Shown here piece by piece: positions 24,736-64,000 of a stretch of DNA of 64,000 nucleotides. Numbering within the stretch: the stretch's first letter is position 1; the number at the start of each line of letters is the position of its first letter. Source of the stretch: Amphiscolops sp. MND2022. Taxonomy: Eukaryota. The DNA is taken from contig OZ076409.1 in NCBI GenBank assembly GCA_964187785.1, positions 11,100,001-11,164,000 of the forward strand, given 5' to 3'. The position numbers and the translations under genes were made by a program. The notes under the pieces are model-generated. The model searched no databases and had not been told where the DNA came from. It saw only the letters and a list, made by a program, of their open reading frames with translations.

Positions 24736-24990
24736 GCTTACTAGGTGCATTGTGGGGAGAGCTTAAGGCTCATCATCCAATTACAATGGTACAAAGATGG
24801 CTCCATAAGGGAACCGCAATAAGTTTAAATTGTAGTTCAACTAACTAACTAGAACATAAAGATAGGAGTTATTTAACGATACGTTACAAGGTAATCATTC
24901 CATGGGATAGTTTAAGACTTCCTCCCAGACATGACAATTATCGGGGTGGATAAATTAAATAGGGGGCAATAGAAAAGAGTTTTGGGCGGG

Positions 24991-32500: not shown

Positions 32501-32762
32501 GTACTTGCATACGATTTCCTCCAGCGCCAAAGCGGCTACATAGTAATTCAAACACCTTCTCGGGGGTGTCACGTTCGGATTCTGCTTTGTTAATGATGTA
32601 GTTGCGAGCTTCACCTTCAAGGTGACCAATGATGCTCCAGGCCTGGTCCTCGGCTGAGACCTTGGTTTGCGTTCTCTTCAGGTATCTCTGCATAATAAGG
32701 ATCCACCTATCAATGGATCCGTCTTTGGAACCGCGATATACATTAGGTCTCGCCTGAGCCAA
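29577..32762 (-). pseudogene. pol: Element A gag-pol, middle part: capsid-like region, CCHC knuckle, protease, dUTPase-like segment and RT; ends at a premature TAA
   Basis: CFNCGQAGHFARDC; LVDTGSG and FLLGRNFL (protease); YPLPRID, RMPFDLCNA and YIDD (RT). TAA replaces Lys in EI*YLG and the frame continues in phase into the next ORF. Confidence 0.93.
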
Positions 32763-34309: not shown

Positions 34310-36799
34310 CGCGCTTATTAATAGCGATCGAGTTACCGCTCACGATTACTCGGAAAACTCAAATTGGGTCGCCGAACGTACCAGGGTCTTCAATTCGAAG
34401 CTGATCCCTTGGTCGTCCCGGTGAGCACTTAAGAAATTTGATGTTACTCAATGTCCTAGATTTTTCGAAACACGTTCTAGAGCTCGTAGGCTGTTCAAAT
34501 TTGCACAGCGTTTTCCCACAAGCTCACTGGGCCAGAAAATCAACCTGGTTTCGGGCAGAAAGTCTCCAGTCACTCACAGGAAGAATTTCAAAGAATTTTA
34601 GGATTTTTCAAAATTCGCACGACAACACTCAAGAGGCTCGTGTGTGCGCTAGAAGCGCTGTATCAAGCCCAAAATTGACCAGCAGATCTTAGGTACACGT
34701 AGCTTTACGAAAATGAATACAGTTTTGAGCTGCGCTCCTTCAACACAGTTTCACCTAGGTACTGACGTGCGGTACCACGATGTACCGAAATACACTGTTT
34801 TCCACGATTTTTTTTAGATTGCGGTCCACTGGAAAGAGCTAGCAAGCTCAAATTCTCTGCAGCAACGTAGAAACTAGCACAAGTTACGATGGTGGGCTGC
34901 AATATAGCCCCACCCGTCGGCTAAGGTGCCCGGGTTACTCGGAAAAATTAAGAAAAAACTGACTTTTTGCGCGCCTTCTTGGGTGCCACGTTTTTCCTTT
35001 TTTCTCAACAAGTATCACACAGATCGGCACCAAACTTGGAAGTTTATGCCAGTGGGCACCTAAAATGGCACTGATATGGTTGAATTGAAGCGCGAGCGCT
35101 TATTTGAGGTTTCGACCTACTATGTACGTTGTAAACGAAAAAACACTGTTTTTGACTACTTTTTTTTACAAATTGACCAAGAGGATCACCTCAGAAAGTG
35201 ATACGGCGGGCAAAATGGGACCAACGTGTTGCCCCACTATCCGTAGCACTGGGATAAACCCTCAATTGGTTGTGCCCGTTAGGTATAGGGCACTGACAGT
35301 CCAGCAGTTTTGGTTTTTTTCGGCTTTTTTATGCTTCTCTGAAGTCGAAACGTCAGAGAGCTTTTCTCGACTTTGGTGAGCGATACGCTCACCAAATTTT
35401 CGGCACTAACGTTAATTTTGGTGGTGATTACGAAAATGCAACAACTTTTTGGCTAGGGTTCAGGAATCGATGACCCGACCCTAGCTCAGAGACAGTCCGG
35501 TTTTGTGGAAAATTGATCAAATTCAGTGCGTTTTTCCACTTTTCTCAGCACTGAATGGGAGTTTTTACACGCGATTTTCACCACCACGCGTTATTTTTAC
35601 TACAAAATCGAAAATGAGAGCGCTCAAGCCCGCTCTCTTCGAATGAGCTTCGCTCTGGGTGTTTTCGGTTAATGCACTTTCTCTGCTCGAAAATGTCAAA
35701 ATTCACAAGTTTTTCGCACTGTATCAGCCCCAGGCTGCCTGAGTCCGCTACAAAAGTTGCAATTAGTATCCTGAGGGTCAACCACACTTGGGACAGTGCC
35801 GTACACTGTCGTTTTACACTTCCATACTCGTGTACGTTCACATTTTAGGTGCCTTTTTGGTCAAATTTCCACTTTTTCCACATTTTTCGGCATCAAATTG
35901 GCACTTTTATCACAATCAAAGGCTTCAACTTCACCTTTCGTGCCTCGTGCCGGCTTTCTCGAGCCTTGCAGCTGCTTTTTCAAAACTTTCCACCAAACTT
36001 TCCTGGCTTCTTTGAGCACTAGTGCTCGAAACCAAGAAAAACACCAAAAAACGCAAAAATGAGGTTTTTTTCTCCAAGTGCTATCTTTTTCGCAGAAAAG
36101 CACTTCGTAGGGTGTCGTTACATTTATAGTAGAACGTCACTGACCTGCACCAACGATTCTCCATCGAAAGAGGTGTATTTTCAAATTTTTCGCCAACCAT
36201 TCTCCATCTGAGCGACGCATCTGGTCACAGGGGGTGCATCTTCACCACGTTATTTCTCCACATCTAGACCAGACAGAAACACGCGGGTGGGACCATTAGC
36301 ACCGTCTGTTGTTGCACTTGCTGTCCACTAAAAACAATGCCTCTAGGACGTCTCCACGAGAAATGGAAATAGGAAGTAGGCAACACGAGATTTGTCCCCT
36401 CCTTCGCCTTGCTGGAGTATGGTCAACCATCCATCCGTTACCCTCTCACATGGCATAAAATGGCTGAAAATAGCTCAAAAAACCTGTTAGACACCCGTAG
36501 CCACGTGCTACGGTCCTCTACACCTGCAAAAAGGTACCCGCTGATGGGTACACAACACATCACACATATAGAGCGATTTCCTTCTAATATGCCCAAAAAT
36601 ACCATTTTCACACCTGAAAACACGTTTTCTTCGGCATTTTCTCTGGTTCGACGCCTCTCCCAATTCCAGTAAGACGTAATACGACTAAAAAGAGGTAAAA
36701 CTCTGCTTCTCTCTCCTGTCCAGAGTCGAAAACGGGCTTGGCGCTGATCACCAGGGGGCCAGATCTTTTAAAAACCGCTAGGGAAAGCTTCCCAAGACG

Positions 36800-42757: not shown

Positions 42758-45216
42758 TTAAAACCCAATTCCATAGGGTGGACGCCGAACAAGTATTTCG
42801 GGTTTTCAAAGTTGGTCCCCTTTTGGATACTATCTCCTCATAGTGAGGTTATGGTACTGTAATGACAGTCAGCTTGGGATATGTTTTCAGTTTCTCTTGA
42901 TTCAGAGGTCGACGGGACGTTCCTTATACTAATTGTTCCAGAGGTTTGTTCTGCCCCATTCTGTTTCTTCAAACAGGGAATCGATTTTTGGAAACAAATT
43001 CCCAATCATTGCAGGATTTCTCTCTGTTTTGTCTCTGTTTCCTTTATACTTCTGCCAACTGATTTTTTAAATTTCTCGGAGTTCTGTTTATCTCCTTATT
43101 CTCGGAGAATTCATTATCCGAAATGCTCGTGACTTTTTCAGGTAGGCTAGTTGTCTCCAATTCCTCTATAGTGCCCCATGGTGCATCTCGTTTAGCATTT
43201 CTCTTATATGATCTTTCGAGCTTTTTTCAGCGACTTTGAAGGTGTATTTTCACGAAAATTTCATAAAAGAGTTTTCAAGTGTTTCAATATTCTCAATTAC
43301 GAAATCAGACGAAATATTATGATTAATATCCCAAATTTCACACAATTTTTTTTCTTCCCATTCCGGGAAAAAAGTCCCCACAACTTCCATACCTCTGGCG
43401 TCCATCGGTGGCAGAAAAACAGAAAGTTCAGTTCAGCATTGTCGAACACAGACTCTCAGTTTGTTCCTGCTTTCCGGGAAAAGCAAGCGTCCACTTCCTG
43501 TCGGAGTTGCCACTCGGCTTTTCTTCGCTTCTAATTCCCGTCCTTCAGGACGCCGAAACTGTACTTGGCCGTGAAATAACATTGATGATTCAAAAAACAC
43601 TTTTTTAGAAGTCATTACAATCAATTTTCATGGAAAAGAAAAAATCTTCCTGATTTAACTCAAATACTCCACGATACATCATAATGCTTCAAATGGGTCA
43701 ATTTCACCGGGTTTTTAGGTGATTAGAGCTGAATTTTCAAAGTAACACAAATCTAGGTCCCAGGCCACTGTCTAGAACGCTTGAGTAATTATTTATTATC
43801 TCACTCGAAAATAGTTATGAACCGCACATAATAACAACAAAGACTGGGCACTGGCTCATATTTATAGACATTTTGTTAAAAAGCGACAATATTCAAAATC
43901 AACCCAATAAATCATTTCTACCTTGAATTTGATGATTCCCTTTTACCGGGACACGTCCGGGGCCGTGGTTCACGAGGTGGTGCTGTTCAAATGCAAAAAA
44001 AATTGCAGGTACTCACGCGCTTGAAAACTAACATAGAAGTGGTTCAATTCCAATACAGCGCACATTTCATTTCGAGGCCGCTAGCCAGGCCGGCGTCTCA
44101 TTTCTTAGTAGGACGCGGGATCGCCGCTAGAATTCTCAGGCCGTTCGCCAGGCTGAGCTTTTAACTATTGTAAATTACATAGCGCCGTTTAAATATCTAT
44201 TATAGCTTCGTGATTGTTGCTGACAACCCGTCTACAAGTAGGTAGTCGATAACCAATTAGTAATATGAAGTACTGTTCTAAATGGTTCAGCTCCGTTGTT
44301 TCGAAGTTAAAGGATGGATTTTTTGTTATTTTTTCAGATGTTGGTTCCTTCTTTCATTCTTTCTTTCCATTTCCCGTTTCCTTCTCCGTAAACTGAGCTT
44401 GTTTTGTGGCAAAATTCACAACTCAGCTGGGGCTGTGACAGTCCTCGGCTTCGGAGTTCAGTCTGGTCTGGGAGAATGAGAAATAACTGTGAAATAGATG
44501 GTATGAGGGTGTAGAAAAGTGTTGCTAGATCGTCTCGCATCGCGTCAATCGCACGCCAAGATGATTCATGGTCCCAGTCACTGCCCGAGTAGTAACCTTC
44601 AGAATTGCTTCATGAGCTGATGGGACTCATAAAGACGTTATCTGGTTTTACCGGATTATCGTGTGACAATTGTCTGACCGCGTCTCGGTTGTTCTCTTCG
44701 TTAACTATCAATTTATTTGGTTGCTGCTCGTATACGAGGACCACGTGTAGGTCCGCTGTTTTGATGATTTCGTGAAACGTAGTTGTCCTTGGCGGGTTAA
44801 TTATGTTGTATTTAGGCGGTGGGGTATTGGGTCTTTGTTTCTGCTGCTCCTGTTGATCTCGATCAAGGAAAACAGTGTCGTCATTGTTGTGTTCATTCGG
44901 AGTTTGGAAATTCTATTTGTTTCGGTTACGAACTGAATATCAGGCGGTTTGTAGTGCGGAGCTGAATAAATTTCGCGTTTCGTAATTTGTTCAGGAGGTT
45001 TCGTTGAATTTTGAGTTGTTCATCTGGCAGACCGCCCAAATCTCCCTTTTTAGTAGATAACTTCTGATACTAATACTTCTATGATCTTTTGCCACATCTT
45101 CTCTGTAATAGTATTTGCTATTTTCGGATTGCTTGAAACAAAAATGTGCTTTACGGAAGAAGACAGTGCACTTCTGCATTGCAGTCGTGAAGCTGGTCTT
45201 GTTGAGAGTTAAAAGA

Positions 45217-47710
45217 TGTGGAGGCAGTTATCGAGTCTGTGCTTGGGAGTGTGGAGGGGTGGACGTCAGTGGTGACAAGGACAAAAGTGGAGAGGTTTGT
45301 GGAGGTGGACATGACGTTTCGACATCGCGTGGATTTGGTGAGAGAGATTGTTCAAGTGATGATGCTGATGACGGAGATGAGGAAAGGTGTGCCGTCCTTT
45401 CGTTCTGCGCCCAGTGACAACCGTAATACCATTGACTATATGGCAAACAAGAGAAGTGAACTTTCCTAGAAATTAAATCAGCGGTAGTAGTTGTGTTGGA
45501 CCGCGTTATTGTTAAGTTTACTTTCACTGTTACCAACGATGAACTTGATAAGGACTATTCGTCAAGCTGCAGGACTAGGTCCCAGAACAAGACGAAACAG
45601 CGGTCCAGTCGTGTGCTGTCCACCAGTAGTGTGCGATCGACCAAGCGTGTGCGCTTGTGTGACATCCTTTTGGGTGCCATTCACAGGTCTCTTACTCTGT
45701 ACGACAGTTCTCGTGACGACAATGTGCCGCCGACAATTTCTGCATCAAGTGTTCTTGAAAGGTACTCTTGCTTGTTTCTCCTTGTTTTGAAAGTCTTCTC
45801 TGTAATGGGTTGTGGTTCTATATTCAACGCCCCATTTTTATGTACTTCATTTTTTACTGTTGTCGTTGCTGACCTCGAGACTGGGCTGGGTGGTTTGTTC
45901 TGCTGCCGAGAGTAATGTGATTGCCTGTGCTGAGACTGACGCTGTATCAGTGCTCCCAGCAGGACCTTCCCGAGATACCATGACGCACCATGGTCGTGCC
46001 GCTGTCGGATTGGGGCCGTCTGTTATCCACAATGTGTCGGGAAAAACGAATAGTTTCGTTTTTGTGTATGTTGTGTATTTTTTTCCATTTTTCCTCTGTC
46101 TGTCTTTCCGCTGTTGACTAGTTGGTTTCGTTTACACTATTGTGAAAAGTTGTGGTTTGTTCTTAGCTGGCCTGGAGTCTGTCCCTCCTGGTTCACCCGT
46201 AGTGATGTCTGCCGCACCTGTGTCTTATATTGACTCGACGTGCTGCCCGGACTGAGGTGACCTAGGCATTGAGAGAGAGAAGGACGTTGGCCAAGTATCT
46301 ATTCGGTTATTGTCTCCCATACTGCTTTTTGTTCGTGTGGTTCAACCTTGTTCATCGACATTTGTTCCTTGTTTGGGTTTTGTTTGTTTCCTTGTTGTCA
46401 TCCTCATCATGCGTTACCGGATTGCTCTTTCAAATCTGTTTATTTAGAATTTGAAGAGTTGTCACAGTTGCTAAAGACAAAGAGCACTGATGCCAACAAT
46501 TCTTGTCGTGTGTTGGACGCTCTGGACTCCAAATAGGAAAAACTGGCTCGTGAAGAGGAACCTGCGAAGAAACAGACTGACCGACAGGTCCTGACCAAAG
46601 CCATGAGTGACCACCCCATTCCGAGGTTGTTCGTCAGCCGACGAAACAACAAAAGCCCAGTACACTTCGACTGCTCCATTTGCCAAAATGTTGTCTCCTT
46701 CTTGTCTCCTGGACCCCGAGGCATTCGGAGGCATTTTTAAGAGCAAAGGGCATTATCTGAAGACCGGCGTTACCGTTTAGATGACGAGTACGTCATCTAT
46801 ACAGTGAAGTTTGATGCTATTCCTGTTAGTGAAGAGTCTGCAGTGCTAATGTCCGAAATTGAGAAGACACCGCATTTGACCCTGGGCGAAATGATCAGAT
46901 TTGTGGAAGACGAAGTTTATGCATTGGTTGGCGACACGTCCAATGTACCTCCAACGACCCTTGTTGATTGCGTGTTCGAGTTGCTGAGGAGTGGTGGTTC
47001 GAAGGTACTCCTGCGCCGTCTGGGGCATCAATTCCAAACGACTCCGCCCGTTGACAGCCCATATGTCTCTGTTACCTGGAGCAAGACTGAAACTTTGTTG
47101 GTGATCGTGCAAACGTTCGACCCGCGTGGACATCGTCGTCTGGAATCGTAGCTAGGTGAGAGACCTATTAGCTTGGCGCTGCAAGCTTCATTCTCCGTTG
47201 TTAATTGTACCGTCTGCCGTTGTCCTGATTCTTCTTTATGTAAAGTGTGCCTTATAGACGAGGATCATTGCGCTGCCTACTTTGAAGCAGAGATACAGTT
47301 TTTGTCTCGGGCAATGCCGTTCGTTTCTACTCGTCTAGGGCCTGTTGCCATCCAAAACTGCCCCCGCTTCTATTTAATGACTACATTAACTAGTGACGTG
47401 CTGTGGGTTGACCCGTACCCATTGTTGCGGTTGCTTTCGGCTTCGATTCTTTGCGTTGTTTGTTTGACGTGGCCAGTTTCGTGTGTGTTGGTTCGAAGGA
47501 GATTATTAGGAGGTGACGCCGAATACTGTCGTGGACCTGTTTCAGGACCTTGTCGCCTGTCTTCTGGACGCCGGCTGTCTGGACGATGTAGAGAATGAGT
47601 CTGCAGTAAACGAGTTCAAATCTTTTGTACTGGTGATTGTTCAGAAGTTTTTGAAGTGTTCGACTATTTGGAAGCAAGTGGGAGTTACCAGTGTCGATCT
47701 GATGTGAAGC
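45217..47710 (+). pseudogene. Antisense zinc-finger/hAT-transposase-derived pseudogene within element B
   Basis: HFDCSICQNVVSFLSPGPRGIRRHF/KSKGHY finger at ~46660-46756. TTLVDCVFELLRSGG, TWSKTETLLVIVQTFDP and GPVAIQNCP align with the intact gene at 57782-62542. Contains stops and frameshifts. Confidence 0.6.
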
Positions 47711-48339
47711 AAGTTGATCGACTGCTGCCTGTTGATGTGTGCCCTGCTCCCAGTATGTTGCCCCACTTTGATGTTTTCACCAGTGGAATGTTTGGAGGAG
47801 CTGAAAAGTATTTTCCGAACTGACATCAGTTTAAAAGTTGTAGAACCATCAATCCCTGGAGTGGTATCAGTCGCCATGCCTGCAAGGACTTCTTTAACAG
47901 TACATTTCCTTGTTATACAACAATTTTGTGTTCTTATTGTCGTCTGGCTCTGCAGTGCGCCCCGTGGCTTATGGTTCGGCCTCTGCAACTGACCTTGTTC
48001 CTGCTGAAAGTGAGCTGACTGCATCAGGTTCGTCATCGCGAGTAAGAAAAGGAAGTAAGAAGTGTCAACGTCATAGGAAATCCTTCTGATCGTGACTTTG
48101 TTTTAAACTTCATTGGTTGAATTTATTCTTGTAGTTTGTTTTGTATTTATTCTATACTTATTTCTTGGGTTATATTAACGGACTCCTCCTGAATGTATTC
48201 TTATAGAAATGGAAATATTAGAGACAAAGGAATGTAAAAAATGCACCAGTATAAGAAAACAATCCGGTGGCGACTCAATGTCCAATTGGGTTTTTGAAAT
48301 TAGTATTCAGTCTCTGTTTATTTTTCATTCGAGTTGAAG

Positions 48340-51300
48340 AGTGAGAGAATCTGTAGCCACTTTTTCTGAAGGGATTTTGAGTTAAGTTCAGCATACTTCT
48401 CCTGGATTTTGCCTGAATCGTTTCACATTTTCGGTCCTGGGCCATCCCTCAGGCCTGGGCTTGAAAAGTTCACATTTCTAGGTCGCTGTCCAGGTTAATT
48501 TTCTGGGTTGGTGCGTTTTCTGGGTTAGAATCTGGGCTATTGTAGTGGGCGAAATCTGGTTTCTAATTTGACGTTGGGTTTGATCTGAGAATGTAGTTGG
48601 GTGTTTGAGGGAATATGAAGTTTCGGTGTAATGGGATTATCATTTCTTCTTAATTTTCCACGTCATCCGTGGTGTTTTGTGTTCTTGTGTTAGGTCGGGG
48701 TCGTTTCTGGGTTTTCTTTTTCGGGTGATGGGTATAGGAGTTCAGACTTATCAGCTTGGTTTTATTGTTGATGTAGCTCATATTCTTTGTAGGTTTCTGA
48801 CCATGCTAATGCATATAGGTCATCATGTTGTATTGTTACCTCGTTGTCCTGTTGGAAATCTTTGGGTGATACTGTTATATCTGGCAGTCGTTTGCTGCTT
48901 GTAAAGGGTCGCAATTTGATCCTCTGCAATAATTGAGTGAGGTTTGTTTGAAATTTTTGTTCTAGGTAGTTGTTGTTAGGGAGGGTTTTGACCACGACAT
49001 ATGGCTCCGTCCAAAGGTAATCTCGAAACGGCAGTTTTGTAGCATGGCGATGAGCCTTTGGATGTAGTTCATAGCAGTATTCGTTCACTACCAAGGGGTT
49101 AGCTGATGCTTTGTTGTCATAGTAGCATTTGTGGCGTACGTCTGACTTCATAGGTGATTGTTGTGTCTGGCTGATGATTTGATGAGTCTGTTGTAATACT
49201 TCCTCCGCCAGTTGGATTGGGGTTTTAAACCATTTTTCAGGTCGTTTACGTTATATGGTACTCTTCAGCAGAACACTCGGCTGGGTTTGCATGCCAGGGA
49301 TGCGTGATATGATAAGTGTAGATTAACACAGCCACTGGTAGGAAATGATGCCACTGGGTACGGTTTTCTCTTGTCGTCATCTTCAGATTTTCATAAAGGG
49401 AGGCGTGGGTCCTTTCTAGGTTACCAATGGTTTGAGCATGTTTGGTTAAGGCGTAGTTTAGTTGGATGCCCAGAACTTAGGTTGTTTGTGCCATTGGTTC
49501 TGTTATGAACTGGGATCCTTTGTCTATTATGCTGGTTGTAGATAGATAGCAGTATCTGGTGAATATGTCGATCAGGACACAGGCAACTGTCTTTGTATCT
49601 ATCCTGACCAAGTTGTATGCAAAAAGCGACCGAGACAAAACGTCCTTCGCTGTGATGAGTACGTTATAGCATTCTGATTGGTCGTCGAAGGTTACTATGT
49701 CCATCTGGAGGACGTCTTCGGGTCCCATTGCCATCTGTGACGTGTCTATCGATGGCGGAGTGGTTGAAGTACTCGGTGTCATTTTCGTTTGAATGCTCTC
49801 TGGGCATTGTGATATGCGTCGGCTTATTTTGGTGGCCAGTCTGGGGTAATAGTATTTTTCGTGGCATTGAAGTATAATTTTGGCAAAGGCGGGGTATTTC
49901 CCGAGCAGCCCATGCTGGTGTTGAATGTATTCGTGTATTAGCTGATCTGCGAGTAGGACTTGTAGGTACTTTGCTTTCCTTAGAAGTACTGTCTATGAAA
50001 GATTCCGTCTTTGATCATGGTCCCGTTTTGGGCGAGGTGTTTCGCTGCTCTTGCTGCGTAGATGGGTGTCTTTTGATACTCGGACATCTTTCAGTTTGAG
50101 ATTTCTAAGCACTGGGTCTTGGCCTTAGTGTGGTCTCAAGCTACGTGGAAAAATGTTCTCATCGTGTAGATACCTTTGCTGTTACCTGTCTGGGTCTTGT
50201 TTGTTGTTGCAGAACCTGGGAGGGTTTTGCGTTTGAGAATCTGGGGTATGGATGGCGGTTTTGAGGTCAAGTTGTTGGTACGGTTGCGAGTTTATTTTCT
50301 TTTTTCCCTTGTTTCCTCTCCCAGATGTCCTCTTCCGTTTTGGAAGCATCTTCTGTGCAGTTTAGCAGTGGCTGTTTGATACAAAGGTCGCAGGTTTTTT
50401 CCAGGGACTTGTTTATGGTTTCAAAGTTCGTGATCAGTTCGTGATCAATTTTCGCTGGTTTTTCCGATTTGATGAGTTCGTCAAAAGGGCGATTCTTTCT
50501 GATAATCTGGGGATGTAATTTCTTTAGTAGTTTACAAAGCCGAGATATTTTGTAATTCTTTTCTTTGTTCTCGGAAATTTGAGCTTTTGTAGATAGTTTT
50601 GAATTTTGTTGTTTTGAGGTCCCACGCTCAGAGGAGAGGTCGTTCAGCCAAGAAATTCCACTTCTTTTGCTCCAAACTGACATTTGGCCATTGTAACTGG
50701 CGTCTTGCTGCGCTGATGCATTGGAATACTTCTCTCAAATTGTTTTTCAACTCATCGGGGGTATTGGTCGCTATACCAATGTTGTTCACCTGGGCGAATT
50801 TATCCCTCTTTATGGTTTTGTCAAGGTACTCTCTCATGAAGCTCGCGAAAGATAGATGACTGCGAGCCACTGAGGCCTTGGGCTAGCGTGGGGTACGCCA
50901 ACGTCCTGCTGGCGAAGTTCAACGCTAGAAGTTGTACTGACTTCTGATCTTCCATTTGCAGAACGTGGTGAGCTTGTGAGCAATAAAGCTTATATAACAA
51001 CTTTTTGCAAGCGAGGTGCTGCACGGCGTCTGTCATTGTGCTGACCGGATGATTGTAGTTAATGTAATCACCTGAGAGCAGGTTGTTGAGCTTAATGAGG
51101 TCGACTGAGAGGCGCAGGTTTCCGGTCGGTTTTCTTCGTGTCAATATGGGGCTGGCGTATTTGCTGAAAGGGACGATTGTTATAATGCCAAAGTAGTGCG
51201 TAATTGCTAGCTCTACAATGAAGTCCTCTTTTAGGTTAATTGGGCGAATTGAGTAGACGAGTTCTTCGGTTTTTGGTGTTAACTTTTTTCCGAAGTCGTG

Positions 51301-52400
51301 GTTCATCCCAATGTCCAGCCTGTGCCTGGCGAAAATATCGTGAAACTCTATTAGGATTTCTTCAATGTCTTTCTGGTCCTCATCATTTAGTTGTGAATCA
51401 TCCAATTTGAAGCTTTTGAGCAATGTTTCTCGTTCTTCCGGGCTGTTGATTGGTCCCGTTTTGGGATTGCTTCGAGTTCTTTGATTTCTCTCACTTTACA
51501 TCTCTGGATGGGGGTATGGGTATTTGGGTCGTCGGCAATTTTTGTCGTGAAGAACCAATAATATATGTTGGCAGACGGTTTGTCTGAAGTTTTTAGAAGT
51601 TCGTTGACGTATGTGAGGGCGCCGTCATAATCAACTTCTGCGAGCATTTTCAGTGTTGTTATGCTGAGCGGTTTCAGTTTTTTTGCCTCTGCTGGGGACA
51701 TTATTTTGAATTCTCCAATTGTTGTATTCGTTTTGATGGTGAATGAGTGGGTGTTGTTTGTAACCCTGACTTTCTGTTTGATGGTGTGGATATGGAACTT
51801 GCCGTGTATAAGGGAACACCACTGCAATGGTTGGTAGCCGGGATTATGACACCGGTTGTGTCGATGGCTGATGATACATCGGTGTATGCTGTGGTCATTT
51901 GCGTCGTTTCGGCTGGTATAGTGATGGGGTGTTTTATCTGGACCTTGTACAGTTTTTTGTTTCTGGTGTTTTTGTCGGTCTCAATGGAATACGTGAGGTG
52001 GGGGAAATTTAACAGCCCTTAGCTCACGTCCAGGATGGCGCTGTTATTCTTGAGGAATGTGAGGTCGAGTATGGGTCCAGTGATTCGTTTGGCGACGATG
52101 AATGTTTCTCCGAAGTTCCAGTCTCCTATTTCGAATTAGGCAACATGGTTTTTGTGGGTGTTTGATTGTTGCCGTTAACGACTGGGAATTTAAATGGGTG
52201 GGTTCATCTCTTTGATGATGTCTTTGGGTGAGATTTGTTGTATTTTGACGTAGTCTGTTTTTAATAAGCAATTTACTATTGCACCTGAGTCCATTCAGGC
52301 GTCGAGGGTGAGTTCTTGGAAATCCATGGGAGCGAATAGCTTCTTCTTCTTCTTCTTCGAGGGTTATCGCTGGGAAAATGGATATGCAGGTGTTTGTTAC
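48340..52400 (-). pseudogene. pol: Decayed gypsy pol (PR, RT, IN)
   Basis: DA*MDSGA (protease); FARHRLDIG, PFSKYASP, NHPVSTMTDA, AQGLS and VNNIG (degenerate YVDD) (RT); LQMDIV...DKGSQF and WTEPYVVVK (integrase). Confidence 0.9.
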
Positions 52401-54416
52401 TGGGTCGAGGGTGAGGTATTCTGCAATCTGATCTATGGGGTAGGGCTTAAGTTCAGTTCGCCCTGAGGTGGTATGGCTTCATCTCCAGTGGAGTATTCAG
52501 ATTGCATGTTGGTTTCATCATTTGTAATGGGTCAAGGGTCCTCGATTTCTTTTCTTGACTGGCTAGTGTGAGAAATGGTGGAGACTGATGTCTCTTCGGA
52601 GGAGATAGGTCGCAAACGCAGTGACTTTAGGACTCTCCTTGTGTACGGTTTGGACATGATTGTACTCGTGCTGGTTGTTAAGTGGGCAGGGTCCACGGCT
52701 TCAGTCGTGGGCCTGCTGGTAGTGTTTTCGATTGGGTGGAAATCGGGTGGAAATTGGAAAAGTAAATGTTAAGTATGGCCAATGGCATAAACTACAGGAA
52801 CAAGCAAAGAATACTGTCGCCTCATAATACTCGTGTTTGGCACTTTTGTAGTCTACAAGTAGTCTAAAGCGACTATTGAAATCTGCTGGCTTCAAAGCTC
52901 GTAGACAAAAGGATGGCCTCTAAACACCTCTTTAAATAATTTTGCTGGTTGCCAACAAGACGTTTTGGGGCATGGAAAGGGCAGCTCTAGACGTTTCCCA
53001 TCACTAGAACTTTTTAAGGGGACAGTTCACCTCAATATATTTAGTACTCGTCGTCACGAAAGCGGTAGTGGGACAAGAAAGAAGAATTAAAAAACTCTTG
53101 AAACATCTTTTGAAGTGACTTGCTGCGCCCCATCTATTCTGTCAATAAACCGTTCCACCATTTTTTTTTCAAAACGAGGGGGCATTTACTGACAGCAAAG
53201 TGCTTTTTAGGAGAGAAAAGTTGAGGTTTTTACGGATGTAATTCATAGTGTCAGCGTATGATTCGTCGCGTTTTCAACTGATTTTTACAGATAGTTGTTC
53301 CATCATTTTCTGATCAGAAGACGCAACGCCTCCTGGGAACGAAAAAACTAGCACGGTGAAACTACTTTGTCCAACATTAAGAATTCGCAGTTGATATTTC
53401 ACTTTTTCAAACCCCCGTGATATTTGTACGAATTGTTAGGGTTTTTGGATGTTTCGGTAAAAGGATTAAAGATTTTGACATCGAAACGAAAAGGTGTGAG
53501 GTGGCGACTCCAAAGATCAGTTGCTTTTATAAATAGTCGAGCTGCATCTTTTTTCGTGTTAGTATTGATATCAGAGCTCTCACATTGTTAAGGTTGAGAA
53601 GTCGGTTTGACTTCAACGTCAAAGGAAAATTCATTGGTAAGGCAAAAATAACTGCGCAAACGTGTCTCATCGTGATCTCATTGTGGGGTATACGGGTGAA
53701 ACCTCCTGGTGTTTTTGTTTCCTTGCTGTAACGTAAAAGAAAACCGTTGTGAAATTCGCACTAGAAGGGTTGAAAATGTATTTCATCAGCAGTAGCACGT
53801 TGAGCCAGTTTGAGGATCTCACTTCTTGACTTACAATTCATCGTGGGCGAGTTTTTCCATAAATATTATCTTACATTTTTCGAACTTTGAGTTGTTCCAT
53901 TCGTAATTTGTCATGATCTTTCCTTTGTATCGCCATCGAGAATATCGTGTCAAAGTCATGAAAATGTTGAAATACATCATCGGAACACGCGTACTCTTCG
54001 GTGTGGTCGTTTGGGATTTCCTCTTTCCTAATCACACCACCTGGGTTCAGTGTCAAGTTTGATAAAATTCTCTCCCGATCCGAATTAGTTGGTTTTCTAA
54101 GTGGGACTCAATCTCGTTGATGTTTTTGCTATGCTGTTGTGTCGTACGGTCAAAGAACTCACATTCCTGAGTCTTTCCTGAAAGCCTTTTCTCAGGCAAA
54201 CTGCTTCCTTTCTGAGTCTCGTGATGTATTCGGGTTCAACTCTTGGTGTAGAACGCTGCATATACCATTTTACCTTTTCGTCTTTGATCGAGTCCACCGA
54301 CCGGCCGCAAACCATGCATCCGGTATAACGTACCTCGCTGACATTCTGGCAGGGTACTGAATTCTGTACATGGTATGACGCATGAAAGTTGCTCGGAGCT
54401 GGCTGGAGAAGGGGGG

Positions 54417-54726
54417 TGTCGAACCCAACCGTGTGGGTCGGCTTTGAAGGACCTTTCGAGGTTGACTGTCGGTTTTCGGTGTCTGTCTTACTTATGACAG
54501 CCATCATTAAGTCCTTCAGTTGACTGAACTCATTCTGTAGTTCGTTTATCTTTCTCTCATAACTCTCTTTTATTTCAGATAACTGAGACGAGATATCGGA
54601 AACCTCGTTGCTATCAGAATCATTGGCAGAAGACTGAGCCATGTCTGGGTCCGTTTGAATGGGTGTTTCTGATGAGGAACTAATAACTCTTCCGCTTCTG
54701 AGTTCTGTGCCTAGATCTGGGTTCAT
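54417..54726 (-). mobile_element. Element C: Gag-leader-like ORF (MNPDLGTELRSGR...) running to a putative LTR terminus ...GGTTCGACA at 54417
   Basis: LRSGR start and coiled-coil SQLSEIKESYERKINELQNEFSQLKDLM. Sequence character changes abruptly after cgaCA, the same terminal motif seen at 8213 and 10506. Confidence 0.55.
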
Positions 54727-55376
54727 AGAGGTGAGAGAAAAGGAATTATGAGTGAAGACTGGATTCTGGATGGTTTTTCGATGTATTTTACTATTTTGTG
54801 CCTTTATTCGAACTCAAATTCACTATTTCTGAACTTGAGATGTAAATGCGATGAGTTTTACAGTAAGACAAGGATACTAGTAAAAATGAGAAATAGTTAA
54901 CGAGGATTAAGCAGAATTCATCCAAATTTCATCGAACAGATATCGATCACGGAATTACTCAGAGTTGTGAAGGTAGTGTTTTACGATGAATAAGAGATAT
55001 GTTTTTCTAGTTCAAATCTGTCGTAACTCGTCCAACTGGACAGTAGCTAATCGCAATTTCGGTCTGAGTAATCTCTAATGGCGGTCCAAAATACAGCAGT
55101 TCACGTGTCTTTTCAGGCTGGTAAGACGCTAAATCTCTTACCAGCCGACTCTTATTGGCTATTGCCAGTTGGTGCTAATTGGTAAGTCACGTGACCGGTG
55201 TTGTGAACTGCCGCAAGTTGGCCAAACCACATGGTACATCTACATATGCTAATTATGACTAATCATCACTTTACAATGTCGCAATTGCCTGCACACAGTG
55301 TCATGGTTTCTATAGCAACTCAAATCATTCAATAATGTACTAATTTCAAGTCAAAACAGAGTAAACTGCATCACAG

Positions 55377-56262
55377 GATGAGAAAACGATGTTTTTCCAA
55401 CTAATTCTAGCACTAAAATCAATACTTCAAAAGCAAAGATGGAAACGCGATGAATTCGTCAGAATATTTGCTGATTTTCAAGTCTAGTTTAGCTCTGGAT
55501 GAAAATGCGATGAATGGTGGTCTTTTAGCTCGAAAATCAACACGATATGAACTGGCGATGATAAAAGGATGAACTCGTCTTCAAAATGAATGATTTCCAG
55601 CACAATTTAAATCAACGATGGTAAAAGGATGAACTCTCCTCGAAAATAACTAATTTCCAGCACTAGTGAAATTGACGATGAATTCAGGATGAATTCAGCC
55701 AATAAAACAGGTGAAACAGCTAATCCTGCAGTGAAGACAAATATACGATGACTTTAGGATGAATACATTCAATAAAACAGCAAAATCTAATGAATGAAAT
55801 TCCAACGATGGGTTTAGGATGAACTCAACTGAAAATTCGGCTAATTCTAACGTAAGTCGAACTAGCGATGAATTTACGACGAACTAGTGATAAGTTAATC
55901 TAATAAAACAGATATCCAGCACTTCACTCTTTTTTAGGATGAATTAAGGATGTACTTTCTCATTTCTTGCAGTTTCTGTTCAGGGCGATGAAATATAGAT
56001 GTGTTATGCTCTTTTTAAGAAATGAGAAGCACATTGAAGGTTAATAATCACAAAACGACGATGAGTATAGGATGGCTTTCATGCATTTTAAAGTCCCGTG
56101 AGATCCGCTGATGGATCACTAAATGAAATCAAATAAATGTCTCAATTTTGTTCACCCGCAATCTTGGCGATGTGATTGCGATGAACTTTGATAATTTAGC
56201 ACTGTAATTTCACTAGTAAATAAAGTTAAAGGATCACTAAATCCGCTGATGGATTAGTGATG
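55377..56262 (+). repeat. Phased array of GATG-N7-GATG motifs (13 perfect copies, spacing mostly 60-70 bp)
   Basis: Copies start at 55377, 55438, 55498, 55557, 55617, 55677, 55747, 55807, 55938, 55987, 56060, 56169 and 56248; intervening sequence is divergent. Confidence 0.9.
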
Positions 56263-56475
56263 AACTTTTCCCGAAATTCGTCACGACTACAAGTCCTGAG
56301 GCGAGGGAGCTAGTAGAAGTTACAGATTCCATTATTTCTACATCTCTCGGTCCAGTCTGACCGGAAAACTTCTCTCCCTTATCGTGACAGACCAATATTG
56401 AATAAGATAGCACATTAAAAGCTATTGGCCAGATCATTTGTGCGGACACCGGAATTAGAGCGCTCAGTATTAAGT

Positions 56476-56488
56476 AAATATATATAGC
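56476..56488 (-). promoter_or_regulatory. Putative TATA box for the Gag-direction transcript of element C
   Basis: Minus strand gctatatatattt...gagcgctc; context resembles ctataaatacgagcgctc at ~7483. Confidence 0.4.
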
Positions 56489-57781
56489 TCAAAATCAGGG
56501 GGGATAGGGATTAAAGTACAAGTAACGTAGGGTTGCTCACAACCATGGCTCTTATTATATGACATCATATTGCCCATATCTAAGTACATAAGACATAATA
56601 TTTACATTACAAATATTTAGTAGATTATATTTCCATCATGCTGGCATGACACTCCCCGGGGCGGGATTTGGACTGAGAGTGCAGGGGCCAAATGTGCAGA
56701 GGATGGTTGTCTCGGCGTTGGCTTCGACTGGTCCTTCGTTTGGTTGGGGAGAAAATGGCCTTCGTTAGTTCTGAATTGGCATGTCCTTCGTTTGTTCTGT
56801 CCTGTGAGAGCTTCTCTGAGAAGAGGACCTTCGGTAATTGTCTTTTCTGGCATCATCCTGGGTGATTTCGGTTAAAATTTTCGACGCGGCAACTCTAATT
56901 CTTGGTCCATCGAATGTCCGCTGATCTGTATTTTATTGGTTGTCATGCTTTTGACGGGAGTTTCGGCTGGTTATTTTCGGTAGGAGCTGATTTCTCGGAG
57001 AAAAGTTTCCCTCCAAAACGCCTACGCTGAGTAAACAATTCGATTAGCTTCATTGACATATTGGCAACGAGTCGGGGATGAATGAAAGATGAATTGTTTG
57101 CTCAGCGAGACATCAATGCTGTTTAGCGGAATGGCTGGCTCCGTTGCTTTGTTCACTCGCGATGGAAAGGAGATGAATCGTTGTCATAGCAACTGTCAAA
57201 AGTTACTTCCGCTGCTCGACTTTGAGTGAAAATGAGAAAGAGATGAATTCGTCGCCAAAGTAACTGTTGCTCGATCTGATTGGCTGAGACTGAACTTATA
57301 ACTGAAGGAAATTACAACCGGCTGTCAGCAGCATTCTCATCCATAAATCATCCTCCATTCAAGTCGTTTTGAAAATCGCCACGATTTCCTTTGCGCGTTT
57401 CCGCTCAACTTCGCCGGCATTGATCTGAGACTGGCAGCTGTCAACAAATCAAATACTTGAAGTTTTTTTGTCAAGTCCTAGGAGAGGACGATCCATTTTC
57501 AGAGAAGGCTTGAGTTGGCTGTACTGGGAAGAAAGGTGATGCCAGTATTTGAAATCGGAGTTTTTTCATCGATTTTTCATCTTCTGAATTCAAGTATTTG
57601 ATTAACATGGCATTCAAGCTGCGTCGCGCTTTTTGAAATCTTCTATTGAATTTGTTCTTCTGTAATCATGGTTGATCAGGCCATTTAATTACTGATCAAA
57701 TTCTCTGCTCTTGGATTCTTCGATTTCTTTCCTTCTTTCACCGTCTTCCATTCTTTTCAGATTGTTTTGCAATTCTTCGCG

Positions 57782-60700
57782 ATGTCGGATATCAACTCCG
57801 TCTATTCGTTACCAGAGACCGAGGTCACAGAAAGTAAGTGCACTATTTTTTCTCTTCTTCACAAACGGGCCGGGGAATAATTAGGAATTGAAGGCGTGTC
57901 TTGGTTTTAGCGGACTCCGTTCACTCTGTCGGCATAATTTCCGAACTGACTACGTTGCAGACAGTTCCGCCTCAAGATGCTCCAATCCCTGCAGCATCTC
58001 ACGCACCTCAGTATCAACCTGAGCAGCAAACTGAACAGGCCCCTAACGTCCCGTATCTTCCGCAGTGTAAGTACTATCCTTCCATTCTTCAGTTCAGTCT
58101 TCGAATCTCTCATATCTCATCCTTACTCCGTCCAGTAGCTGACTCCTTTTCGTATGGTGTTTCAGACCACTACCCTTGGTATGCCTCCCTAGGCAGCATC
58201 ACCTTCGGGTGGTATGACCGCCACATGCGGGACATGCTGCGGGACAGCATCCAGCAGTACAGTGAGTTTGTCAATTTCCTTTTCACTTCTCTAGGCTATC
58301 GTCCGAACACTCCGATGTGATTCCGATGTAAACATCTCATCTGCATGTAGTGTCCTTTGCGGTCGATTACCCATGTAATTCACCTTCGAGATGAATTTAG
58401 GATGTGTCATGAACATTCACAGCTCTCCATGACTGACTCGCTGTAAATCCCATTTTTTGAAGATGAGTTTTGGATGTATTCTTCTCCGGTTTTCTTTCTT
58501 CGCGCGGCGTACGCGCTCTTTCTTCTCTAATCGTCGTCGTCCAGTAACTGTTTCTTCTTTCAGGTCCCACACCGATCCACGCACCAAGGCCTCGTCCCAT
58601 CAGCTATTCCGTAGGAGTAGGGACGGGTGATTTCGCCGCAACTAGTGCTGATGCTAGCACTCAAGGAGGGCCCCCTCCACTAGAGTTGTCTTCGTTCCTT
58701 GAGGACCTGTCACTAGGTGCAGTGAGTTCTCCTGTGATGAGGCCTTCCGCTTCCGTCCTCTCACCGAGTCTCCATCGGTACCTCAACGCCAGTGTCTCTC
58801 CCAGGAGTCCTCTTCCTCCACCTCGCGTCACAGTTGACACCGCTGTTAATGCCGTTGTCAATTTCATAGATGCAGCCGTTGATGCCTGTGTGGATACCGC
58901 GGACAAGGAGGTCCAAGCCGTTACTGAAACTGCTGATGATTCCACGTCCTATGAACCCCAGGTGGAGACTTCTCTGTCTGCTTCTTCTCCTCCACCGGTT
59001 GCTGATGTTCCGGGGGCGTTTGATGGCGACGTTGATCCATCTGAAGTTCCTTCAACTGGCACCACTGAGACCCGACTGGAGATCCCTGACGATCTCTCAT
59101 TGCACAGTCCTCCATCTGGCATGTCAGTTCCAGGAAGTATTGTGTCCAATGTGGGTACTGTCGACCTCGAGACGTCTCCAATGGGACCCAGCCTGTTGGG
59201 CTCCGATGACGAGCCCATTGCATCTCGTCTGCCAGGTTAACTAAACAGCTTTAAACCGGTGAAGTATCTGATCAGTAGATTTTCATTCGTTTCCCTTTTC
59301 GTTTTTACTTTTGCTAGCATTTTTCACGTTTTTCTCTTTTTTATCCGTTTTTCATCGTTTTTCTGTTTGCACTATATGTTTTCCGCAGTTTTTCATTTTG
59401 CATCGTTTTCTCATCGTCAAAAGTTTTGAACAATAGTCTTTTCGCTCTCTGGTCCTTTTTTTTGAACTCTTCATCTCTTTTACATCTCTAAAATTTCTCG
59501 TTTCGTTTTTCTCTATCTTTCAGTGTTTTTTCTTTTCAGTTTACATCTCTTTTTCATCGTTAAGTCGTTTTCGCTCTAGAATATCTCAAATTTGGTTCAA
59601 AGTCGCTCTATTCATCTCTTTTTCATCTTTCGAGGCTTTCATTCTTTAAAGTTTCCATTTTTTCATCCTGGTGGTCTACAAATACATCTCTTTTTTATCC
59701 TTTTCATTTTTTCTCGTTTTTTCGCTTGTATTTCCCGATGAAAATATTGTTTTACATCATTTTTTCATCATCTCGGGGTGAACTTTTTGGAAAATTTCAG
59801 TGGATTTTCGAATTTGCTTGTTCTGCGGATGTGTAGAGGAAGAGTTAGACAATTTCCGTTTTCTTGTGATTTCAGGAAAGAAGATTCTCAAGACTGCGTG
59901 GTTTGCTCACGCGTATTGTGGATTGGCCCTGGGCTTTGCTAAAGACCACCGCACGCGAGATTCCTATGTCAGGTGTCTCTTGTGCAAGCAGGACGTCAAG
60001 ATCGCCAGCAGAGGTATCACGACGTTCTGGGAGCACTGTCGGGGGGTTCGGCACCACCGACTTGACTGTCTGGTTCGACTGCGACGGGGTCTGGCACTGA
60101 GGAAACGTGATGGTACGTTGATGTCAGAGGCGGAAGCTGCGGCTGTCACTCCAACATTGGTGGGCGAGAGTGTGCCACAAATGGAAGTGTGTCCGGATGT
60201 AACAGTGATGGAAGCGCTACGTATCGAAGCGGAAGGGAGGTCTGTGTGGAGCGATGTTTCCGATGAGCCAGAGGACAGACGAGTCGAAAGTGTGCGGTTA
60301 TTTCTGTGTTTGGTAGTGGATGCGATGTACCGTGGTTGCGACTTTTCCAGTGTGCAACATCTCTGGGATTTAATAGTCTCATCTTGTCGTCAACATTCAT
60401 CGCTGTTTGGCGCGGCTTGTCGTGAATCGGACGTGCTGGTTATTATTCTATATTTATATGTATTACATGTTTTGTGTTCATGTTACATGTAGGTGTGTTC
60501 CTTAGGTTTCATGTATTGTGATTTTTGCCAAAGTTCTCTCTCAATGGCGACAACGAAAAACTTGTTGTGAAGGTCAAACGGAACTGTGTTTAGTCTCAAT
60601 AGTACTAGCGTATAGGTTGACTGCTTCTCTTTTTGTAAAATGTGTGCTATTTGTGCGTTTAGAGTGTAGTGCTGCTGGGGCTCTGGCCGTATGTGATGCG

Positions 60701-62542
60701 GCGAGTGATCGGCATCTGGTCTGAGTCTGACTACAGTAGCTTCAGCGTTACCACTGTTGCAGACAGGGTGGTTGGCACGGTGACCGTTTGCACGTTGGAA
60801 GGGCCTTCAAGTTATGTTGTCTTCTCCCTAGCGTACGGTCAAGAGTGGGAGCAGGAAGCTGTGTCATGGATTGTGAATCTCCTTTGCTGTTGTGTTGGAC
60901 CAGTTGCGCCTGTTGGCATCAATTGTGGGTTGTTGCCGAGAGTGGAGAGAGTTTTGTGTGCATCCTCTGGGCCGTATGTTATTACGTTTGTGCCGTTGAA
61001 GCTTCACGACTTGAACAAATGTCTTGTGGATTCTAGTGTGCGTGTGATGGGTGGAAGTGACCTGTATTCAATTTTTAACCATCTACAAACTAGACTGAAA
61101 GAGTTTGTGAGGGATCCAATTCTGCTGGCATGTCCAAAACTGTTGCAGGTAAATATATTTAGGGTATCGTTGTGTGCGTGTTTGTCCTGGGATGTTAGTT
61201 TGTGACTGTTCTTAGGTATGAGGCTGTCGAGAGTCATGTGCAACTGTTTGTTATAAGTTTCTTCTGGTGTTTCAGTGTATTCTGGATGGAGAAGTGACTC
61301 TCTGGGATGTGCCTGATGTTTTGACAGAACTCTACAGTAATTGGATTGAGATCTCCTGTTTGTTGCGAGAACCGAGCAGCTCTGGGACAATTGAGTCCTT
61401 GGATCTTGTACTGTGTGGAGACCCAAGTGTTCCACTGCGATTTCATGCTTTGGCTATCGTTTTTCGTGCTCGTATGTACACTTTATTTTGTATAGTAATA
61501 TAGATTTTAGGATAGGGGATTGGGATAAGTTTTACCTTTCCGGACTATAGTGGTTGATTGTCGGGTTTACTTTTATGTGTACTTTAGTATCGGCTTTGGT
61601 GTTGTTTTAGTCGTTGCTTCATATCGCTGGAGTTTCAGCAGTAGTGGACTGAGGAGCTGTCACTGGGCATATGAGAGTGCGTGCTTCATTCATTCGATTT
61701 TGTCCAGAGTATGTGACGAAAATGAACTGCCTGCTGTGACAGACGTACGAGCGTGCTTGGAAGTGGAAGTAGCCAGTCTTGTGTTATCAGAAGTTAAATT
61801 GGGTGCTCTTCAAGATGAATTCATTGTACATTCATCGTGTTTCGACAGTCCGGATGTATTTGTGGCTGATGTAGCGACAGTGAGGAGTTTCTTTCTAGTC
61901 TTGGTAGAGGAGGTTCTGCAAATTCGCGGGATGAAAGAATCAGTGTCATTTCATCTAAGTGTGTGCTGCCCTGCTGTGTTATTGTGTGGAGATGCAAATG
62001 TGCTTGCTAGTGAGGTGGAGCAGTTCACAGAATTGTTAATCGATCTGCGGAGAATCCGTACATCAGAGAAACGACAGATGGATGGAAGTTTCAGGTCGTT
62101 TTTGACGAATTTCCGGCGCGGGGCAACTGATGTCGCTGTTGACAGTTGCAGTTCAGCCGTGGATATTCTCCGAGCCTGCGATAATCTGCATTCTCGACGT
62201 TTGTTTCGTTTCCTGATGTGCCTTGGAGGGAGTCCCCTTTTCCCAGGAACTTTGAGTTGTGTTGGTGTGGGGCAGTTGCGTGCGAATGTTACAACTAGTG
62301 TGTGTGCTACTATCTTGAGTTTCCTCAAGACTCATTGTGTTCGCCAGTTTGAAAGTGTCAGTGGGCCCTTAGTAGAAGAAGTCGTCGACGCAATAAGTCG
62401 ATTTACAGTCCTGTCAGAGTTAACCGAAGAGATGCTCTGGGATGACGTCGGAGTTGTTGCAGACGAAGCTTATCGTCAATCTCTTTATGAGTTGATGGGT
62501 TTCACTGAAGAGGGGGAACGTGCTCCGAGTCCGGAAGTTTGA
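57782..62542 (+). CDS. Intact 8-exon gene, ~1060 aa: disordered N-terminus, C2H2-type zinc finger and hAT-transposase-derived body lacking the DDE triad
   Basis: Exons 57782-57833, 57911-58066, 58136(or 58166)-58261, 58564-59235, 59876-60438, 60663-61148, 61276-61471 and 61611-62542. All are GT-AG and phase-compatible, summing to 3183 nt. Motifs: CLLC...WEHCRGVRH, FVPLKLHDLN, SYRW and RLFRFLMCL. Confidence 0.8.
59340..59770 (+). repeat. Intronic phased CATC-N7-CATC array (~71-bp period)
   Basis: Perfect copies at 59401, 59472, 59544, 59613 and 59755; near-perfect at ~59342 and 59685. Confidence 0.85.
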
Positions 62543-62867
62543 AGACTTGCTGTTCGCTACAATTTTTGCTGTATATTGTTTCATTGTGTACGTTTTGATT
62601 TATTATTTTATTTTATTTGTGGTACAGGTAGTGTTAGTGTGGGTGACCAAATCAATGAAAATACTATTAGATGAGGGAGGAGTGAAAAATACTACGTCGG
62701 AAAGGTCGGTAGTATGATTTATGTACATTAATTAAAATTTGGTGCCCGAAATTCATTTTCATTTAGAGCTGTTAGTGGTAGACGTTGTAGGTAGTGAAAT
62801 TTTGCGGTTCATAACTTTCTTAGTCTGCTAGTAAGTCATGTCATTGAGCTATTCGGGTTCCTGTTGT

Positions 62868-63250
62868 CATCGCTTTAACATCGTTTTTTCGTTGTCGTAA
62901 GTCTCAAATGGCTCTTCTCACGGTGATCATCGTTGTTACATCTAATATACATGTAGGTAGTATATCAGCGTTGCGGTATTGATTTTACATCTCATTTTCA
63001 TCACGTTTTCCTCGGTTGACCGGGCGACGTCGCGAAAGTTGTTTTCTCATCTTTTTTACATCGTTTGTTATATGCGATTCCTTGCATGTTTGTTACATGT
63101 GATTTTCCTACATAGTTCATCGTTTTTTCATCTTGCCTTTGAATTTTTGCATTTTTGCTAGTTTTTGGTGTAATTCATCGTTTTTGCATCGCAAGTTTGT
63201 CTTGTCCAGTTTTTGCTCATTTTGCTGTATAGTTCATCTTCTTTTCATCG
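62868..63250 (+). repeat. Downstream phased CATC-N7-CATC array (~60-bp period)
   Basis: Perfect copies at 62868, 62928, 62988, 63048, 63118, 63176 and 63235. Confidence 0.88.
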
Positions 63251-64000
63251 TATTTTTGAAATGTACAATTTTTGCGTGTATTCGATGTTATTTTGCTATA
63301 ACGTAAGCGGGGTTGCATTTTTCATGTCCGGGGGAAATTTTTATTAGTATTGCGGTGATTCAGAGTGTTTTCTTCATGTATTTTAGCGTTATACGGTTAT
63401 AATCGTTTGTCGTGTTTTTGAATTTGCATGAATTTTATAGTACATGTGGTTTGATCATCGTCGTCATTTTTCTAATTTGTCATCTTCGGAACGTCATAGC
63501 ATGTATTTTTAGTTCGAATTCTGGTGACCGCCGCGTGCGTGGCAGTCGAAAATAAGTTCACTCAGCAGTGGTACTGATAGCCTGTAGGCGTGCAAGGTAC
63601 TAGTGGCTTCAGTCCAAAGCTGGGTGAGTGGAGCTGCTCCGCTCCTTTCAGATGAATTGAATCTCGTAGTTTCGGGCTATATATAGTGTATATGTCATTT
63701 TTTCGGTTGGTTGTTTGCCATTATTCATCGAAATGGGTTTGTCCATTTGACGGTCAGTCCGATCAATTAATATGATTGACAACTACAGTTATGCATGTGT
63801 CCAGTTTGAGACTATCTGTTTCTTGTATTTACATGTATGGATTGTTACATGATGTGTTCTTTTTAAATGGGTTGCCCCATTATTGACATGTCGTTATATG
63901 TTCGGTGTCAGTTTCATGTTTTTTAATTTTATTTTCGTTCATTTGGACAGGGCTTTGTCGTCACAAAGCCCCTACAAAACTAACTGAGAATCCACTAGCC

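Follow-up and report, generated by a model that had tools for sequence, protein, structure and literature searches.

The 64,000-nucleotide stretch of Amphiscolops sp. MND2022 DNA analysed here (assembly GCA_964187785.1, contig OZ076409.1, positions 11,100,001 to 11,164,000 of the forward strand; hereafter the window) ends within a young, high-copy, autonomous Ty3/gypsy long terminal repeat (LTR) retrotransposon of 19.3 kb, which lies on the minus strand and whose 3' third occupies the window from position 54417 onward. Between its pol gene and its 3' LTR, this element carries a predicted antisense gene of eight exons (57782-62542, plus strand), which has been under strong purifying selection while the subfamilies of the element diverged to saturation at silent sites. 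A bipartite motif, GATG-N7-GATG, recurs in the LTRs, in the introns of the gene and in the spacers around it. The best overall explanation, to which we give a probability of roughly 0.6, is a Ty3/gypsy element with a selected antisense gene, the protein of which regulates the element, probably via the motif.

The element and its boundaries

Position 54417 is the exact outer end of the 3' LTR: in all six near-identical copies with flanks, homology starts at 54416 or 54417, and from there it continues over the 14-15 kb fetched. The 3' LTR (54417-56651, minus strand) is a repeat of 2235 bp with TG..CA ends, which recurs with five mismatches (99.78% identity) at 71480-73714, 7.5-9.7 kb past the end of the window, and the element as a whole reaches 9.7 kb past that end; coordinates above 64,000 are given in the numbering of the window's own contig, beyond the window, and the assembly comprises 1.07 Gb. 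The element is bounded by GGGGG on both sides (54412-54416 and, past the other LTR, 73715-73719), a 5-bp target-site duplication, and a second complete copy has CGGTT on both sides.

Outside the window, pol, gag and the 5' LTR occupy 65194-73714 on the minus strand. Between the LTRs, the minus strand encodes a gag frame of 530 residues with a CCHC knuckle (Pfam zf-CCHC) and, overlapping it, a pol frame of 1703 residues, in which a D-T-G protease motif is read and Pfam places RVT_1, RT_RNaseH, Integrase_H2C2, rve and then Integrase_p58_C, which is the gypsy order. The inner edge of the 5' LTR, where a primer-binding site would lie, is adjoined by sense-strand sequence beginning with TGG. Together, the LTR pair, the duplication and the gag and pol domains identify a Ty3/gypsy element on the minus strand. 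The first-pass annotation of the window had read a retroelement end with a putative LTR end here, and had attributed it to an LTR retrotransposon whose pol and partner LTR should be sought further along the contig, which is where both are found. A DNA transposon with inverted motif arrays as subterminal repeats was also considered, and was dropped on the copy boundaries, the LTR pair and the lack of terminal inverted repeats (TIRs).

The same annotation had described a minus-strand Gag-like leader, which corresponds to an open reading frame of 238 residues (54097-54813). This frame is the N-terminus of the 530-residue gag up to ‘...THTVGFD’ and diverges from it at 54417, where the 3' LTR meets the flank. 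The gag ATG (MAQSS...) lies inside the LTR, about 75 codons before its inner edge, and the start of gag is therefore duplicated in the 3' LTR. Because the leader matches gag and then splits from it at the LTR edge, it is no separate gene: it consists of the LTR-borne first ~75 gag codons (MAQSS...THTVGFD) followed by a chance run-on into the flank. As seen from 54417-54813 and its counterpart at 71480-71876, each 3' LTR bears a dead-end gag N-terminus that reads into the flank.

The antisense gene and its conservation

The antisense gene is modelled with exons 1-4 at 57782-57833, 57911-58066, 58166-58261 and 58564-59235 and exons 5-8 at 59876-60438, 60663-61148, 61276-61471 and 61611-62542, giving a predicted open frame of 1050 codons in which all seven putative introns have GT..AG ends, close to the intact, spliced plus-strand gene of about 1060 residues and seven junctions outlined in the first pass. 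A spacer that is presumed to hold its promoter (56652-57781) separates its ATG from the 3' LTR, and a tail-to-tail spacer of 2.65 kb in total, which starts at 62543, fills the window to 64000 (minus strand) and ends at the pol stop at 65194, separates it from pol.

Copies of the gene are numerous. DNA copies of exon 8 are spread over many contigs: at least 29 are 94-100% identical, and further tiers lie at 83-87% and about 70% identity. A protein search of the genome gave 1337 candidates, 128 of which were scored; all 128 were 59-100% identical, and 120 of them were free of stops. The order LTR, antisense gene, pol is kept in 11 of 11 copies (six of six young and five of five divergent), and every one of them has the gene antisense between pol and the 3' LTR, which is the arrangement in gypsy 3' regions that the first pass had proposed looking for. 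Two divergent copies that are complete in the fetched stretch continue with gag and a second LTR, as does a third, whose outer LTR is cut.

When the gene model was projected on the six young copies, four kept all 1050 codons and every splice site, while one of the remaining two has a stop in exon 8 and the other has TT at the donor of intron 2. In four divergent copies, every mapped GT and AG is kept, exons 5-8 are open in all four, exons 1, 3, 5, 6 and 7 have the same lengths in all four and exon 8 has the same length in the two copies in which it could be mapped. Over the 722 codons of exons 5-8, comparison with the three most divergent copies gave proportions of nonsynonymous (pN) and synonymous (pS) differences of about 0.14 and 0.71, respectively. 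Among five subfamily copies, all open in exons 5-8, the ratio of nonsynonymous to synonymous substitution rates (dN/dS) lies at 0.05-0.17 in 10 of 10 pairs. Identity in the gene is 0.79-0.82, 0.87-0.88 and 0.47-0.49 at codon positions 1, 2 and 3, and introns 5-7 are 0.50-0.66 identical between subfamilies. Conservation is uneven along the gene, with 46-68% identity in exon 4, the length of which ranges from 606 to 702 bases, against 69-86% in exons 5-8. Taken together, the constant layout, the kept splice sites and the low dN/dS make this a genuine accessory gene of the element and not a passenger, and purifying selection of such duration argues that the gene serves the element.

Three observations concern the history of the family. 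Third-position identity between subfamilies falls from 0.82-0.84 in pol to 0.60-0.62 in gag and 0.47-0.49 in the antisense gene, a mosaic divergence that suggests an exchange of pol by recombination between lineages differing in gag, LTR and accessory gene. In one divergent copy (dC2), the outer LTR is cut off within the last 500 bases, and what comes after it matches pol of the window's subfamily at 94% identity, a junction that suggests a nested insertion of the young subfamily. At C7:2716039-2720273, four open frames resembling exon 8, 60-61% identical to that of the window, follow each other head to tail about 1.1 kb apart, which looks like a tandem array that arose from a portion of a related element.

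The encoded protein and its relatives

Exons 1-4, the N-terminal third of the protein, are fast-evolving and of low complexity. This third is probably long and disordered, and orphan globular domain probably makes up about 690 residues of the protein. Exons 6-8 encode an orphan globular part. Between exons 1-4 and exons 6-8, exon 5 encodes a zinc-finger-like segment (approximately 59975-60069, plus strand; C-x2-C ... H-x5-HH...C), and the ligand residues of this Cys/His finger (CLLC...H..H) are invariant in five of six subfamily versions. Three of the six exon-5 versions, not including that of the window, match zf-BED below threshold (best E 0.012), and DUF7830 falls on the same finger with E 0.04-0.1. 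Because the finger adjoins a basic stretch, we infer a nuclear, DNA-binding protein. Structure prediction covered exons 6 and 8 singly: the AlphaFold model of exon 8 is confident and all-alpha, and a predicted complex of two exon-8 domains scored 0.00, a value that speaks neither for nor against pairing.

Relatives exist as exon-sized protein calls. An exhaustive HMMER search with exon 8 gave 60 proteins at E<=1e-3, 24-63% identical and all of at most 367 residues, and exon 6 has 49 relatives at 58-97% identity, all from ENA assemblies and none with a Pfam domain. The intron position after exon 6 is conserved, the same KLLQ preceding the intron in those relatives that reach that far. In other assemblies, relatives form clusters whose members lie on different long contigs, with 28 members in one cluster at 46% identity and 13 in another at 37%, which indicates that the relatives, too, are multi-copy. 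Word-index protein searches returned no longer relatives of exon 8 or exon 6, and the ESM Atlas gave nothing usable for either exon.

A bipartite motif with fixed spacing

GATG-N7-GATG has 39 matches in the window against 1.85 expected, a number reached by none of 100 shuffles, and 37 of the 39 lie within 54769-63249. In the 17,063 bp made up by the internal region and a single LTR, a spacing of seven gives 54 sites, while every alternative spacing between 0 and 20 yields 0-2. The consensus of the aligned sites, cGATGaaaaa(g/c)GATGAa, consists of two direct GATGA half-sites 11 bp apart.

The sites are clustered in several places. The largest array is that of the LTR (16 sites, 54769-56262), followed by four sites upstream of the gene (57077, 57161, 57338 and 57567), three in intron 3 (58314-58476, plus strand), five about 70 bp apart in intron 4 (59401-59769, minus strand) and seven 58-70 bp apart downstream of the gene (62868-63249, minus strand). 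Two more lie inside exon 5 (60109 and 60196). Past the window, eight further sites stand just before the end of pol (64632-65081), with one site of opposite orientation just upstream of that array (64549), and eight isolated sites fall inside gag-pol. Within arrays, consecutive sites are mostly 58-61 bp or about 70 bp apart. The first-pass annotation had already placed the motif upstream of the leader, in the promoter, in intron 4 and downstream of the gene, and had tied these into one unit; arrays are found in each of these places, and also in intron 3, all within the one element.

Orientation is far from random. Of the 31 sites found from intron 4 through to gag, 27 have GATG on the strand of the sense RNA, while all three sites of intron 3 and 15 of the 16 in the LTR read the opposite way, and those in the spacer between LTR and gene are split two and two. 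In five divergent copies, the motif occurs 45-68 times per 20 kb, with its places and orientations unchanged. In non-coding DNA, its eight core bases show 86-95% identity from subfamily to subfamily, compared with 64-70% for all other non-coding bases, which indicates that the motif is under selection.

Proposed function of the antisense protein

Introns that lie antisense to an element survive retrotransposition, as they are not spliced from its sense RNA. Since the antisense introns are not removed from the element RNA, the gene would be copied together with its introns at each round of retrotransposition. The encoded protein is most likely a nuclear regulator of the element's own making, and its likeliest targets are the ~54 bipartite sites, with half-sites one helical turn apart, in the LTRs, the gene introns and the spacers. 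By binding to these sites, the protein would activate the element's transcription or shield it, and would in this respect be similar to the transactivators or antisense regulators of retroviruses, to which it is unrelated. A bolder version, which we put forward tentatively as possible, is a self-recognising retroelement, whose own antisense zinc-finger protein might read the ~54 sites and control chromatin or transcription across the whole family. If true, this would be a regulator in the style of complex retroviruses, with an orphan fold and more than 1000 gene copies, in a genome that appears to be that of an animal.

Several points weigh against the regulatory explanation. The transcription of the gene and all seven splice junctions are predictions from the DNA, and binding of the protein to DNA, or to the motif, is presumed. 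The likeness of the finger to zf-BED stays below threshold even at its best E value of 0.012. The N-terminal exons are poorly conserved, and four of four divergent copies examined have a break in the projected frame, located in exon 2 or exon 4; beyond the young subfamily, the gene model is therefore less secure in its 5' part. The AlphaFold model of exon 6 is unusable (pLDDT, the predicted local confidence score, of 41). Furthermore, all subfamilies share the same motif, and there is thus no co-variation of protein and site that would link the two. Finally, the sense-RNA orientation is common to seven of the eight isolated gag-pol sites and to all 20 sites of the three internal arrays, which would fit a role at the RNA level equally well.

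Competing explanations

The first-pass annotation had taken the antisense gene for a captured, catalytically dead hAT transposase, which would bind the arrays through its BED finger and oligomerise through the hAT C-terminal domain. What speaks for such an origin is the Cys/His finger placed N-terminal to a large globular part and weakly similar to zf-BED in three of six versions, a low-confidence exon-6 model that opens with three strands and a helix, and, on a by-eye reading, W-S/T and H-x-L-N strings in exon 6 that recall hAT blocks. Sequence, profile and fold searches, by contrast, show no detectable kinship. Apart from the sub-threshold zf-BED, no hAT Pfam family matches any exon at E<=10, nor any of 48, 50 and 6 family members, and the hAT C-terminal domain PF05699 has no match at E<=10 on exon 8 or 48 relatives, while it finds at least 150 true hAT C-terminal domains elsewhere in the genome, none of them listed at the element. 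PDB profile searches with exons 5, 6 and 8 gave no match at E<=10. Compared by hhalign with five intact hAT transposases of the same genome (597-697 residues), exon 6 and exon 8 reach a probability of 0.12%, and a 101-row family alignment of exons 5-8 reaches 0.5% at best (E 0.11) and 0.04% in global mode, against 99.8% (E 5e-29) for a hAT-versus-hAT control; in favour of the hAT reading, the best match, which is not significant, pairs this finger with the BED finger of one of the hAT transposases. Nor does any transposase appear among the matches listed for the fold of the exon-8 model, and there is no sequence signal of an RNase H-like DDE core with an all-alpha insertion in the Pfam, PDB profile and hhalign comparisons, the exon-6 model being too poor to add to these. 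Structural similarity to hAT transposases is hence lacking across the sequence, profile and exon-8 fold comparisons, and the unit has LTRs with a 5-bp duplication as its boundaries, with no terminal inverted repeats, rather than hAT TIRs and an 8-bp duplication. A captured, catalytically dead hAT transposase is thus unlikely, and we see a similarly small chance of a remote, eroded hAT origin for the part encoded by exons 5-7.

The arrays might instead be docking sites for a host factor, serving as an enhancer or as a Su(Hw)-like insulator, with the antisense protein employed elsewhere, for example in countering host silencing, in nuclear import or in integration targeting. The motif is conserved and reaches its highest density in the LTR, upstream of the start of gag, in a position typical of enhancers, and its identity in subfamilies whose proteins differ by 20-40% is what a conserved host reader would produce. 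No result obtained here counts against this reading, which leaves the sites in the gene's own introns and on both of its flanks unexplained. We consider it rather unlikely, though not negligible. Quite improbable, in our view, is an action of the motif in RNA, where GAUG-N7-GAUG repeats of the sense genomic RNA would help to package it, to export it or to protect it from splicing, and the LTR copies, being in the opposite orientation, would serve the antisense transcript. The strong orientation bias is what recommends it, but array sites share orientation anyway through tandem duplication, the gag-pol sites coincide with Asp-Glu-rich coding, and half-sites one helical turn apart point to duplex DNA. 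That the gene is a useless passenger, a host gene transduced by a single element, is very improbable indeed: retroelements can transduce genes, according to the account in PMC7264820, but this one is present in 11 of 11 copies of subfamilies saturated at silent sites, its dN/dS is 0.05-0.17 and 120 of 128 scored exon-8 copies are open.

Relation to known systems

Antisense extra genes in LTR retrotransposons have been documented in plants and in one fungal family. The account in PMC7264820 names maize Grande, rice RIRE2, Silene Retand, Phaseolus PvRetro13 and fungal Boty as elements with antisense extra open reading frames in the interval from pol to the 3' LTR, gives the function of these frames as unknown, and mentions an antisense promoter in HTLV. 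As described in PMC4408406, Tat elements have antisense open reading frames with PMD or Tr28 domains, and PMC5408684 describes diverse ORF3s in sense orientation in elements of bdelloid rotifers. Closest among the known kinds are the antisense extra open reading frames and tandem repeats of the plant Retand, Tat and Grande elements. Within this aORF-3R group (Tat, Retand, Grande and RIRE2, and also Boty), as portrayed in PMC7264820, PMC11963269 and PMC4408406, the extra gene likewise sits after pol and before the 3' LTR in antisense orientation, is found in the majority of copies, is conserved about as well as the element's own proteins and encodes a protein thought to be nuclear or DNA-binding. 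The gene described here differs in having seven introns and 1050 codons, in its lack of similarity to Transposase_28, PMD or SMC, with no Pfam family above threshold on any exon, and in its repeats, all of a single conserved bipartite motif, which occupies the LTRs and the gene introns as well. Its host, too, is different, as the types of hAT and gypsy elements present make it appear to be an animal. By analogy, then, the present family works like the plant kind and shares none of its domains. Full-text literature searches, with supplements left unopened, returned neither an animal LTR retrotransposon with an antisense extra gene nor a multi-intron example.

Three other systems invite comparison. 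HBZ of HTLV-1, a vertebrate retrovirus, is an antisense spliced gene by the 3' LTR that encodes a small bZIP protein. The gene described here is, likewise, a predicted spliced gene in antisense next to a 3' LTR, and for both a part in regulating the retroelement is proposed; the two differ in that there is no relation in sequence or fold and no bZIP here, and in that LTR-driven transcription is putative here. With hAT and BED proteins (Hermes, ZBEDs, BEAF-32 and DREF), the likeness consists in the N-terminal Cys/His finger with its weak zf-BED similarity, and the difference is that no transposase core, insertion domain, hAT C-terminal domain, 8-bp duplication or TIRs could be detected here. 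In flies, BED-finger proteins bind CGATA-type sites that occur in clusters and resemble cGATG, and cGATG is therefore a plausible BED-like target. Drosophila gypsy carries one phased array of 12 Su(Hw) sites, which is read by a host protein. Both are gypsy-type elements with a phased array of one short motif; here some 54 bipartite sites are spread over six places, and the antisense protein is a candidate for reading them.

The family is of value as a test case, as it combines strong selection, hundreds of open copies, no known protein relatives and a sharply defined candidate motif. If the protein does read the motif, simple retrotransposons can evolve sequence-specific regulators of their own, as complex retroviruses did. 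There is also a practical consequence for annotation: a gene predictor would call the 1050-codon gene a host gene many times over, and annotators should treat it as transposon-borne.

Neighbouring sequence

The window contains a second, unrelated gypsy-like element, which is GC-rich (52-55%) and lies on the minus strand at 20396-34339. Its frames encode zf-CCHC, protease, RVT_1, RNase H and integrase, and are followed by an open frame of 1439 residues in sense orientation (20396-24715), which has no Pfam family. Just upstream of the 19.3-kb element, the region 44000-54000, in which the sole frame of at least 200 residues has no Pfam family, shows a strong and sustained GC skew of +0.12 to +0.24 and an AT skew of -0.12 to -0.32.

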